Virus record (IMG/VR): IMGVR_UViG_2713896905_000002
Span: 1 to 5,271 of that record
Origin: a virus
Taxonomy: Duplodnaviria > Heunggongvirae > Uroviricota > Caudoviricetes
Length of the DNA stretch: 5,271 nucleotides
Reading direction: 5' to 3' (one strand)
Below are positions 1 through 3,000 of this stretch, in pieces. Numbering within the stretch: the stretch's first letter is position 1; every line of letters starts with the position of its first letter. The position numbers are program-made.

Positions 1-3000
1 CGTTGTAAACGAACGAGTAAAGAGCGCCGCGCGTTGTTTCCGGTATATCGACTTTGATGTACGGGTTAATTTGTCTGGCGACCGTGGCAAGGTCTTTATT
101 CAGGAGGGCTTTGCATTCTGCTTCGGTATACGTTTTACCGAGCATGATGTCTTTTCCGGTGTGTCCGTGACATACAGTCCATACGCCAACGATATCTTTG
201 TATGGTATGTAGCTGACACCTTCCAGGCCATCGTCACCACTCGGACCAGTGATGAGCACAGACGCTATGGCAACAGCCCCACCACCAATAGCAGCAGCAA
301 CAGCCTTGCGTAATGATGGCGGCATTATTCACCTCTCGCAGCCTTACGCTTATCTTCTTTAATCTTGAAATAAAGGTTTGTCAGATACGTCAGCAAGCCC
401 AGAACCAGACTCCCCAGTACACCAATCGCAGCCCACTGTGACGGACTGACCTGATCAAGCCACTGTAAAAACCAGTAGCCAGCACTGCCTGCGGAGGTGC
501 CGTAGGCAATGCCCGTTGAAATTTTGTCCATGGATTTCATAGCCTCACCTCCGCAAATAACGGATGGCGTAGTTTTACACTGAGAAATGAAAGGGATTTG
601 AAAAGAAAAAACCGCAAAAGCGGGCGAAACGATATATACAGTAAGGAAAGCACTCTATCCAACAAACCACCCACAGTTAATCGGAATAAAAGCAGAGTGC
701 TTATGAATGATCGCCTGCCCGAAGGTTAGTATTTCTGCACAGCAATTTTGCAAAAAAAAGCGATCATTCATAACTTAAACGTCTTTCAGTCACTCCGGGA
801 TTTCCCATCATCGCAGACTGAAAGACTCTAACTGGAGCGGGCAGCGGGAATCGAACCCGCATCATCAGCTTGGAAGGCTGAGGTAATAGCCATTATACGA
901 TGCCCGCATATGGTGCCGACTACCGGAATCGAACTGGTGACCTACTGATTACAAGTCAGTTGCTCTACCTACTGAGCTAAGTCGGCACTGGACCGCCACC
1001 GGGGACTCGAACCTCGCACACTCAACTTAAAGGGTTGACGCTCTTTCCTGATGAACTGGTGGCGGTTGGTGGCCCTTGCTGGATTTGAACCAGCGACCTG
1101 GCGATTATGAGTCGCTCGCTCTCACCACTGAGCTAAAGGGCCGGGCGCAGGATAATAACGTTACGAAATCAATGTTGCAAGCATTCAAGAATCACCTGGT
1201 TAAAAATTACCCTTACTTCCTCCACCAGCGCATTCACCATGTCTATCCGAGATAAGTGGCACAAAAAAACCCGCTTGTGGGCGGGTTTTGTTTGCTTTTG
1301 CCATCACGTACAAAATCGGCAAAATATCAGATTTGCATAAAATATATGCCTTTTAATCTACTTTTGCAATATTTTGCTGTGAAAATGCCGTCTTTTGTTC
1401 TGAGCGCGTTCTCGTCGTAAACAATAAAGCTTCACTATCCAGCTGATGAAAAATGTGTTTCATTGCAATCCAGTGACCAGTATATGTTTTGGACCAGTTT
1501 TTAGTTGTCACTCCCACCAGTGATGCCAGCTCTTGGTATTCATAGGTCTCACGCCCTGCCAGTTCGCTCTTCACATCCTGTGCTGCCAGCCAGATTAACG
1601 TCTTCAGGCGATCCAGTGTTTTACCTGCAATTTTTCTGGTACCCAACAGAGCCTTAAACTCGCTCCATGCCCACTGCGTTATGGCAACCTGATGCTCCCA
1701 GCGAATATTTTCACTGTAACTCCACAGCAACCATGCTTTCTGATGTTCATCGAGAGACAAAATCGCACGCCGCCATGAAGAGGTTGAAAACTCGACCGAA
1801 CTGACCAAGGCGACAGATGAACCTTTTGCGTACGACTGTTTACCGGAAATCGGCGGATTATCCAGCGTAATCATCTTGCCAGTTACCACATCCAGAATAC
1901 GCGGTTTCTTTCGTTTGTATGTACCAGTATCAAATTGTGCATGCTCCTGCCAGACTTCAAGCTGACCTTTCATTGCTCCGTTCAGGTCAGCAGTAGCTGC
2001 CATAAGTTGCTCACGAACATATTGTAAATATTGGGTATTCATGCGGCAGCTCCTTTCAGTGTTTTGGCGTAATTCTTCAGTATTTGGTAATCGGTAAAAA
2101 CAGAACCGGGGAAACGATATAAGCGCAGGCACACCCAGCGACGGCGAAGGAGTTCTGATATATAAGACTCAGACATCATTCCCCGGTTCTCCAATATCTG
2201 TTTCACTCATCATCCATAACTATCTGTAACTGCCCCCTTTGTAACAGCTCTTATATTGCTATATGGAATAGCCATAACTAATTCATTTAAAATCAATAAA
2301 TAACATTATAAAAACACAAAACACCATGCAAACACACTTTACAAAAGCACTACCACATTAAAAGTAGGTAATAAAAATTATAATAAAAATAAATTCATTG
2401 TTTATCACACATAATTATAAAACACCATATTGATTACGCCCCTTGTATTATAAATACACGTATGTAAAATACGCGCCCTATTCAAAAAAAAGGAAGACAA
2501 TAACATATGAAAAAACGTGTCATCGCTGGGGGCTTTATTGCTCTGTCATTTACCGCATATTCAGCTATCGCGGACAGCCTTGCATTATCATTAGCAAATG
2601 ATGATGCAGGGAAGTTGCAACCAATACTTAATGATATTTATGGCAATAAACATGAAAACAGAGATGATTACTCACAAGGCTTATTTCTGGGATATAGCCA
2701 CGATATATCAGACTCGAGTCAGTTATCTCTCCATATTGCGCAAGATATTTACTCTCCGTCAGGCAGTAATAAAAGACACAACACAGCTGTAACTGGAGAC
2801 AGAGCTTTTAGTGCATACACTCACACAGGTATTGAATGGAACGCCCTTGCTAATGAGTGGATTCGTTATCGATTAGGTACTGACATAGGTGTTGTTGGTC
2901 CAGACGCAGGCGGTCAGAAAGTACAAAATAAAGCTCATGAGATTATTGGTGCAGAAAAATATCATGCATGGGATGATCAAATAGAGAATCGTTACGGTTA

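Follow-up and report, generated by a model that had tools for sequence, protein, structure and literature searches.

The four-tRNA array between Q and S of a lambdoid prophage: a variant form of the Stx-phage ileZ-argN-argO cluster

Introduction

Are the four transfer RNA (tRNA) genes packed between the late antiterminator gene Q and the holin gene S of a lambdoid prophage a set of their own, or do they belong with the ileZ-argN-argO cluster of Shiga toxin (Stx) phages, and what might such a set do for the phage? The locus that raises this question lies in a stretch of 5,271 nucleotides (nt) from IMG/VR virus record IMGVR_UViG_2713896905_000002 (positions 1 to 5,271), hereafter called the window. 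An earlier reading of the sequence (the original prediction) had proposed an array of Ile(CAU), Lys-like (UUU), Thr(UGU) and Gly(UCC) tRNA genes that differs from the Stx set, lacks an Arg tRNA, reads the A-ending codons AUA, AAA, ACA and GGA, and may be transcribed from its own promoter. The analysis reported here shows that the array is real, common and already annotated. It occupies a known lambdoid tRNA slot, as a variant in gene content of the ileZ-argN-argO cluster known from Stx phages.

Results

Four tRNA genes between Q and S

ARAGORN, run over the whole window, calls exactly four tRNA genes, all on the minus strand, and its coordinates and anticodons match those of the original prediction (Table 1). 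The order of transcription is CAU-UUU-UGU-UCC, the successive genes lying 1, 2 and 3 nt apart, as the claimed separation of 1–3 nt required, and CCA is encoded by all four genes. No Arg anticodon occurs among the calls, in agreement with the proposed absence of an Arg tRNA. The position between Q and S is borne out by the Pfam matches that flank the array, PF06323 (Q) on one side and PF04971 (phage 21 holin S) on the other. The tight spacing is not special, because the host lysT-valT-lysW-valZ-lysY operon also has spacers of 2 and 3 nt.

The cloverleafs, first folded by hand, are called by ARAGORN for all four genes, and all four pass the curated gathering score (29 bits) of the Rfam tRNA covariance model RF00005. 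The Ile, Thr and Gly genes score highest, with E values of 1e-13 to 1e-15, and each, with U8 and U33, is a canonical tRNA. The Lys-like gene has the lowest score (E = 6e-6) and passes, by a small margin, only when searched alone. The whole-window Rfam scan missed it through its speed filters, and its apparent failure to fit the tRNA model was discarded on that account. Two other candidates were set aside. Rfam "Plastid-ycf2 5UTR" matches on the plus strand at 835-1142, with 29-36 bits against a gathering score of 65.7, fall precisely on the complements of three tRNA genes and are artefacts of tRNA-like symmetry. A promoter-like match at 919-892 falls inside the Thr and Gly genes and was taken as chance.

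Relation to the Stx-phage cluster

The original prediction stated that Stx-type phages carry ileZ-argN-argO at this position, and this was seen in the comparison with an Stx2 phage (933W type; Stx2a_F349, AP012530.1). It also raised the chance that the array was the same set misread. That can be ruled out, since the anticodons that ARAGORN reads in the window are UUU, UGU and UCC, whereas those of the Stx2 phage are UCG and UCU. The two clusters have in common the slot downstream of Q, the promoter sequence and an identical ileZ, and the second gene is homologous to argN (82%), with the same position and the same 1-nt spacer. They differ in that the second gene of the window has the anticodon UUU and C33 rather than UCG, argO (UCU) is replaced by copies of thrU and glyT, and no stx genes come next, the structured spacer leading directly to S. 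Of the Stx set Ile2(CAU)-Arg(UCG)-Arg(UCU), only ileZ is found unchanged; the argN homologue reads UUU and argO is absent. The claim of a differing isoacceptor set is right for the anticodons UUU, UGU and UCC, but the set is not independent, as homology to the Stx cluster extends over half of the array despite the differing anticodons. Judged from these sequences, the array is a derived variant of the Stx cluster and not the same set. The Stx2a_F349 locus also gives, downstream of stxB, an Rfam match of 158.5 bits to the small RNA (sRNA) STnc100 (locus segment 792-1003), which has no counterpart in the window.

Two other kinds of phage tRNA cluster invite comparison. The arrays of PPompW and phage Evi, Ile2-'Lys'(UUU)-Arg(UCU), found in E. 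coli O157 and relatives, occupy the same slot with the same ileZ and a UUU gene on the argN scaffold (95% identical to that of the window), but keep argO as the third gene. The Asn(GUU)-Thr(UGU) pair of SfI, phage 21, Sf6 and ST64T lies in the Q–S slot of lambdoid and P22-like phages and likewise includes a Thr(UGU) gene, for which supplementation of ACA decoding was proposed (PMC3636060). The sequences of this pair, however, are unrelated to the present array, and the SfI genes are strongly unlike those of the host whereas the Thr gene of the window is host-identical. In our inspection of SfI (JX509734, locus segment 939-1094) the Asn(GUU) and Thr(UGU) genes lie downstream of Q and are strongly unlike host genes.

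Distribution and modules

The 401-nt array region, counted as present when at least 80% was covered, occurs in 574 of 5,426 complete E. coli genomes (about 10%) and in three deposited phage genomes. In those genomes the array is annotated as tRNA-Ile (or Met), tRNA-Lys, tRNA-Thr and tRNA-Gly, and it adjoins several different upstream (late-promoter) sequence classes. An exact 23-nt pattern taken from the UUU anticodon arm was found, among species representatives, only in E. coli and Shigella flexneri, a search that would miss diverged copies. Our literature searches found no paper on this four-tRNA array, which does not prove the array undescribed; only the SfI paper (PMC3636060) treats tRNAs in the slot.

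A scan of IMG/VR for the T arm of the argN scaffold returned at least 123 segments, including the window and earlier loci, and the numbers from it are not frequencies. At least 94 segments have Ile2-Lys(UUU)-Thr-Gly, at least 13 have Ile2-Lys(UUU)-Arg(UCU), and at least 7 have Ile2-Arg(UCG)-Arg(UCU), the Stx type; in the remaining segments only three of the four genes were called, some of these segments ending at a contig end. Phage phi467 (LN997803.1) carries Thr-Gly only and lacks the first module; its TAT spacer and the first bases past Gly agree with those of the window, and ARAGORN called no ileZ/argN-type genes between Q and stxA of this phage. The cassette, as these arrangements depict it, is made of two modules, the first being promoter-ileZ-argN-type gene and the second either argO or thrU copy-glyT copy-structured spacer. 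In phi467 (locus segment 552-2454) the Thr-Gly module lies downstream of stxB, not upstream of stxA.

The Ile2, Thr and Gly genes

The CAU gene is identical over its whole length to ileZ of Stx2a_F349, 89.5% identical to K-12 ileX and 69% identical to metT/metU. Its acceptor stem, GGCCCUU/AAGGGCC, retains C4-G69 and C5-G68, and RefSeq names the gene tRNA-Ile in E. coli genomes. By these comparisons it is tRNA-Ile2, i.e. ileZ.

In pairwise comparison the Thr and Gly genes match K-12 thrU and glyT at every position, and the likeness to the host ends at the mature tRNA ends. The K-12 thrU-tyrU-glyT-thrT-tufB operon holds the two genes in the same order and orientation; in the window, by contrast, tyrU and the 116-nt spacer are missing and the spacer is only TAT. 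Among the four-tRNA loci of IMG/VR, seven have a Gly allele in which C6-G67 is changed to U6-A67, and the intermediate, U6·G67, is seen in one locus. Such a compensatory change, read from the aligned loci, is evidence of structural selection on the prophage glyT copy.

The Lys-like gene

The UUU gene matches Stx-phage argN (UCG) at 63/77 positions, the PPompW 'tRNA-Lys' at 73/77, and host lysT at 57%. Because it is much closer to argN than to lysT and sits in the argN position, 1 nt after ileZ as in the Stx phage, it is an argN homologue and not a lysT-type gene. The anticodon loop is CCUUUAA, against CUUCGAA in argN, which gives C33 and the anticodon UUU. The changes in the stems from argN to the major UUU allele (G30-C40 to A-U, G3·U70 to G-C, U7·G66 to C-G, and U27·G43 to U-A) all keep or improve pairing, and for this reason the scaffold appears to have evolved as a tRNA at some stage. 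C1-G72, the A51·C63 mismatch and U73 are common to the UUU gene and argN. The allele in the window additionally has C8 and U11. In place of the U8, U33 and fully paired T stem of a canonical elongator tRNA, the Lys-like gene thus presents C8 (in the window allele), C33 and A51·C63. Lysyl-tRNA synthetase (LysRS) recognizes U34, U35, U36 and A73, with A73 the preferred discriminator; the Lys-like gene has the UUU anticodon of this set and the discriminator U73.

The alleles of this gene vary widely. Among the IMG/VR segments listed, C33 is fixed in all UUU alleles. The commonest allele, that of at least 67 among the 123 segments listed, combines U8 with a canonical GCUC/GAGC D stem and, at 44.4 bits, scores the same as argN (43.0). 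The window allele (C8, U11) is unique among the segments listed. In the complete E. coli genomes the argN-type or Lys-like scaffold occurs in 798 and the exact window allele in 6. Stems are broken in some alleles, and others have lost 7 nt, or 1 nt from the D arm. When pairs were counted over 13 alleles, 94% of the cells were paired with one double change, a result reproduced by shuffles in 138/500.

The annotation of the Lys-like gene is inconsistent between E. coli genomes. RefSeq calls the major allele tRNA-Lys. In the two closest genome matches shown (one 100% identical, one with one mismatch) it leaves the window allele without a feature, and in the matches shown it likewise gives none for the PPompW allele, with its 1-nt D-arm deletion; the latter allele is also without an Rfam tRNA hit.

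Nucleotide diversity was compared over 22 distinct loci, chosen for flanks homologous to those of the window, since non-homologous flanks confound the unrestricted set. Ile2 has a value of 0.0035, Thr one of 0.0048 and Gly one of 0.0096. For the Lys-like gene it is 0.0205, or 0.033 when the 22 nt that the search pattern fixed are left out, and for the non-coding flanks it is 0.014-0.033. The Lys-like gene changes about as fast as non-coding DNA, and Ile2, Thr and Gly are constrained. On this comparative reading, the Lys-like gene evolved as a tRNA at some stage, would now be only weakly constrained, and looks degraded in the window. The function of the window allele, with C8 and C33 and unannotated by RefSeq in the two closest matches, is doubtful, and the gene, at least as the C8 allele of the window, is probably a weakly functional or decaying passenger.

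Transcription signals and the structured spacer

A candidate promoter has been placed directly before the array by the original prediction, and it withstands comparison. The site, read 1180-1152, matches the consensus at 9/12 positions and is invariant in the Stx2 phage and PPompW. Across six otherwise divergent upstream classes the −35 hexamer (TTGCAA, TTGCAG, TTGCGG or TTGATT), the −10 hexamer TATTAT, the hexamer spacing and the 9-nt gap from the −10 to the tRNA +1 are all kept, which is good comparative support for a real cassette promoter. Its GC-rich discriminator would resemble those of host stable-RNA promoters, for example the one before thrU.

Farther upstream, a promoter-like site (1369-1341) followed by a hairpin with a U run (1289-1259) suggests the expected arrangement of pR' and tR'. 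The tRNAs start 117 nt past the tR'-like terminator, and the whole array is downstream of the pR'/tR' region. The interval 1260-1395 on the minus strand is probably a short terminated late-promoter transcript. Its Rfam scores for the prophage-associated sRNAs isrK (22.7 bits), isrJ (24.5 bits) and OrzO-P (25.7 bits) are weak and below threshold.

Between tRNA-Gly and S lies a spacer with a strong predicted fold. Its minimum free energy is −92.5 kcal/mol (z = −4.5), 0/200 shuffles fold as well, and the fold includes a 15-bp stem formed by UUAUGAAUGAUCGCU and GGCGAUCAUUCAUAA. No Rfam match was found in this spacer (541-832). Its first 80 nt are common to most four-tRNA arrays, and its first 11 or so nt, all that was readable there, are identical in phi467. 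We infer that it is probably a terminator region for tRNA transcripts initiated at the cassette promoter.

Genomic context

On the minus strand the genes follow in the order ninF, ninG, Ser/Thr phosphatase, Q, tRNAs and phage-21-type holin, with an LpxR-family gene on the plus strand between the phosphatase gene and Q. The mechanical open reading frame (ORF) of Q opens at GTG 2132, and the likely start is ATG 2042, giving 229 residues as in related phages, which annotate a Q of 690 bp.

A 434-like O157:H7 prophage aligns to 1320-5271 and 1-531 of the window, and in it 1.8 kb of unrelated genes replace 532-1319. Phage 434 itself aligns upstream only, to 1320-5271. Because the flanks are shared with the 434-like prophage and the insert differs, 532-1319 is an exchangeable cassette. 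The gene and signal order of the window fits the lambdoid late-region arrangement for cargo genes ('morons'), Q-pR'-tR'-cargo-S. No match to the whole window at high identity was found in complete E. coli genomes or phage records, the best being 83% coverage at 94% identity among the genomes and 75% in phage 434.

Two neighbouring genes were also noted. The LpxR-family gene (2507-3466, plus strand; PF09982, E = 2.5e-39) encodes a lipid A deacylase of 319 residues and is an outer-membrane gene; an LpxR-family moron is likewise annotated in phage 434 and in O157:H7/O55:H7 prophages. A small ORF directly upstream of Q (2039-2206, minus strand; 55 residues from GTG, with internal MMSESYISELLRRRW...) lies where an O157 prophage annotates a YlcG-family protein.

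Table 1. Features of the array and its surroundings in the window
Feature	Position	Strand	Evidence
tRNA-Ile2 (CAU; ileZ), predicted to read AUA after lysidine modification	1067..1142	-	ARAGORN; Rfam 72.5 bits; 76/76 to ileZ
Lys-like tRNA (UUU), argN scaffold	989..1065	-	ARAGORN; Rfam 33.5 bits alone; 63/77 to argN
tRNA-Thr (UGU), exact thrU copy	911..986	-	ARAGORN; Rfam 73.8 bits; 76/76 to K-12 thrU
tRNA-Gly (UCC), exact glyT copy	833..907	-	ARAGORN; Rfam 64.9 bits; 75/75 to K-12 glyT
Cassette sigma-70 promoter (predicted), TTGCAA-17-TATTAT, 9-nt discriminator CCTGCGCCC ending at tRNA +1	1152..1180	-	Consensus scan, conservation
tR'-like intrinsic terminator AAAACCCGCCCACAAGCGGGUUUUUUU	1259..1289	-	Sequence; hairpin in fold and U run; palindrome also flagged on plus strand
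Candidate late promoter pR', TTGCAA-17-TATATT	1341..1369	-	Consensus scan; overlaps end of Q; position as in lambdoid phages; inferred
Structured spacer from tRNA-Gly to S, 292 nt	541..832	-	Three long hairpins and short hairpin/U-tract motifs
Late-gene antiterminator Q	1353..2042	-	PF06323, E = 4e-92, match 2132-1353
Class II holin S, first lysis gene of late operon	325..540	-	PF04971 (phage 21 holin S), E = 7e-36

Codon use

Codon use was compared between phage vB_EcoM-606R7, which has the same array (99% identical over 800-1200), and 39 core genes from 50 kb of K-12, each codon being expressed as a fraction of its synonymous family. ATA makes up 0.11 of its family in late genes and 0.17 in early genes, against 0.05 in the host core genes. 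The corresponding fractions are 0.21, 0.29 and 0.11 for ACA, and 0.20, 0.23 and 0.09 for GGA. For these three codons the difference between late genes and host has P = 1e-3 to 2e-7. The fractions of AAA are 0.67 in late genes, 0.74 in early genes and 0.75 in the host. Of the proposed A-ending codon rationale, then, the parts for AUA, ACA and GGA hold, with about twofold enrichment, and that for AAA does not.

Discussion

The array is probably a mobile tRNA cassette, a moron in the Q–S slot of an Escherichia/Shigella lambdoid prophage and a variant of ileZ-argN-argO, that supplies Ile2, Thr and Gly tRNAs; the sequence comparisons make us prefer this explanation, with some reserve. In the lysogen, the host-like stable-RNA promoter TTGCAA-17-TATTAT would transcribe the four genes as one precursor, and the transcript would end in the hairpin/U-tract region before S. 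After induction, RNA polymerase modified by Q would read from pR' through tR' and the cassette into S-R-Rz, and the tRNAs would then be produced from the late transcript as well. RNase P would cut each 5′ end, and exonucleases would remove the 1–3 nt that then trail the upstream tRNA, as far as its encoded CCA. Processing from one precursor is plausible because the host lysT operon manages with spacers of 2 and 3 nt. The payoff would be more tRNA-Ile2 for AUA, tRNA-Thr(UGU) for ACA and tRNA-Gly(UCC) for GGA, codons about twice as frequent in the phage genes as in host core genes.

Several points weigh against this explanation. AAA is not enriched in vB_EcoM-606R7, and therefore codon supply does not explain the Lys(UUU) gene. 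AGA and AGG are the most enriched codons of that phage, about fivefold, yet its array is without argO or any Arg tRNA. The Thr and Gly genes are identical to host thrU and glyT, and therefore any benefit from them is one of added dosage and not of new decoding capacity; their conservation could also reflect gene conversion with the host copies instead of selection in the phage. The diversity comparison is one of 22 related sequences, found with a search pattern that held 22 nt of the Lys-like gene constant. Consensus and conservation are the grounds on which the promoter and terminators are predicted. Codon supplementation would account generically for Ile2, Thr and Gly and leave the Lys-like gene and the loss of argO unexplained. 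A similar pattern was met in the SfI study, which made the same codon argument for the ACA/Thr(UGU) gene in the slot and found no codon rationale for the Asn gene (PMC3636060).

The cassette might also be a neutral hitch-hiker or relic that persists in a recombination-prone slot at low cost and with no measurable benefit, the Lys-like gene being a pseudogene. The flank-like rate of change of that gene and its broken or deleted alleles would be expected of a relic, the Thr and Gly genes are exact duplicates of host genes, and the slot carries unrelated cargo in other prophages. We nevertheless find this unlikely for the cassette as a whole, for diversity in the Ile2, Thr and Gly genes is 2-7 times lower than in the homologous flanks, the Gly gene has undergone a compensatory double change, the promoter hexamers are kept while the spacer and upstream sequence diverge, and the array is found in about 10% of complete E. 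coli genomes beside several different upstream classes. A benefit might instead fall to the host. If the promoter is active in the prophage, extra Ile2, Thr and Gly tRNAs could help the lysogen translate acquired AT-rich genes, such as virulence genes, with the phage late genes gaining nothing. The predicted sigma-70 promoter of the cassette, with its GC-rich discriminator like those of host stable RNAs and its place downstream of tR', suits such lysogenic conversion, and Schmidt et al. (1997, as cited in PMC3636060) had earlier made such a suggestion for the ileX-like genes beside stx. The same promoter would, however, also serve the phage early after induction, and sequence alone cannot separate this from supply to the phage; we rate host benefit as improbable.

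A different role is suggested by the anticodons. The nuclease AriB of the PARIS defence cleaves at U36AAUC|A41, and U39A abolishes the cleavage while A41C and U16C impair it (PMC12409363; PMC11464382). Variant tRNAs of phage T5 rescue infection (PMC11464382; PMC12409363). The array could by analogy be an anti-defence cassette whose tRNAs replace or out-titrate host tRNAs destroyed by anticodon nucleases, the Lys-like RNA being a resistant substitute for tRNA-Lys(UUU) on an Arg-type body and Thr(UGU) a buffer for the second AriB target. Two of the four anticodons are indeed those of the two main AriB targets. At positions 36-41 the Lys-like gene reads UAAGUU, with C16, where host lysT and thrU read UAAUCA. 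Unlike the host genes, the Asn(GUU) and Thr(UGU) genes in the Q–S slot of SfI and phage 21 (PMC3636060) read UAACCU and UAAGCG there, so that all three AriB targets are found in the slot as versions without the motif. Every stem difference between argN and the major UUU allele, moreover, keeps or improves pairing.

Against this, an AriB-target anticodon without the U36AAUC|A41 site is found in one of the two relevant genes of the window, the Lys-like gene; the Thr gene is host-identical and retains UAAUCA. Neither Ile2 nor Gly is known as a nuclease target. The Lys-like gene itself has C33 instead of the near-universal U33, U73 where LysRS prefers A73, A51·C63, and, in the window, C8. Its diversity equals that of the non-coding flanks, the covariation over its 13 alleles is indistinguishable from that of shuffles, and the window allele is without RefSeq annotation in the two closest matches shown. 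We found no evidence here for PARIS or PrrC acting on lambdoid phages. The tRNA-Lys of T5 is also a phage-borne tRNA with the UUU anticodon that differs from the host AriB site at positions 39-41 and 16, but it is canonical, experimentally active and carried by a virulent phage, whereas the gene of the window belongs to a temperate phage, is known from sequence and has a scaffold of the Arg type, in which positions 33 and 73 are C33 and U73; the likeness is no more than a lead. An anti-defence role for the array is accordingly a minority view, rather unlikely though worth keeping in mind. A broader form of it, in which the Q–S slot is a general store of counter-defence tRNAs (motif-less Lys(UUU) here, Thr(UGU) and Asn(GUU) in phage 21/SfI) and the UUU gene is an Arg-type tRNA whose anticodon was switched to make a nuclease-resistant tRNA-Lys or a decoy, is speculative and again unlikely.

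Clusters of tRNA genes downstream of Q have long been known in Stx and other lambdoid phages, and the present array adds no new principle. Should the anti-defence reading be true, the Lys-like RNA and the phage-21-type Thr and Asn genes would let temperate phages escape tRNA-cleaving defences such as PARIS. For annotation, the label 'tRNA-Lys' in these prophages denotes a homologue of argN whose anticodon has been switched and whose loop has C33, and a working tRNA-Lys should not be assumed; its alleles vary in quality, with that of the window among the worst. For the annotation and evolution of phage tRNAs, the locus is useful as a modular cassette, in which an ileZ-argN-type module with its own predicted promoter is joined either to argO or to host-derived thrU-glyT.

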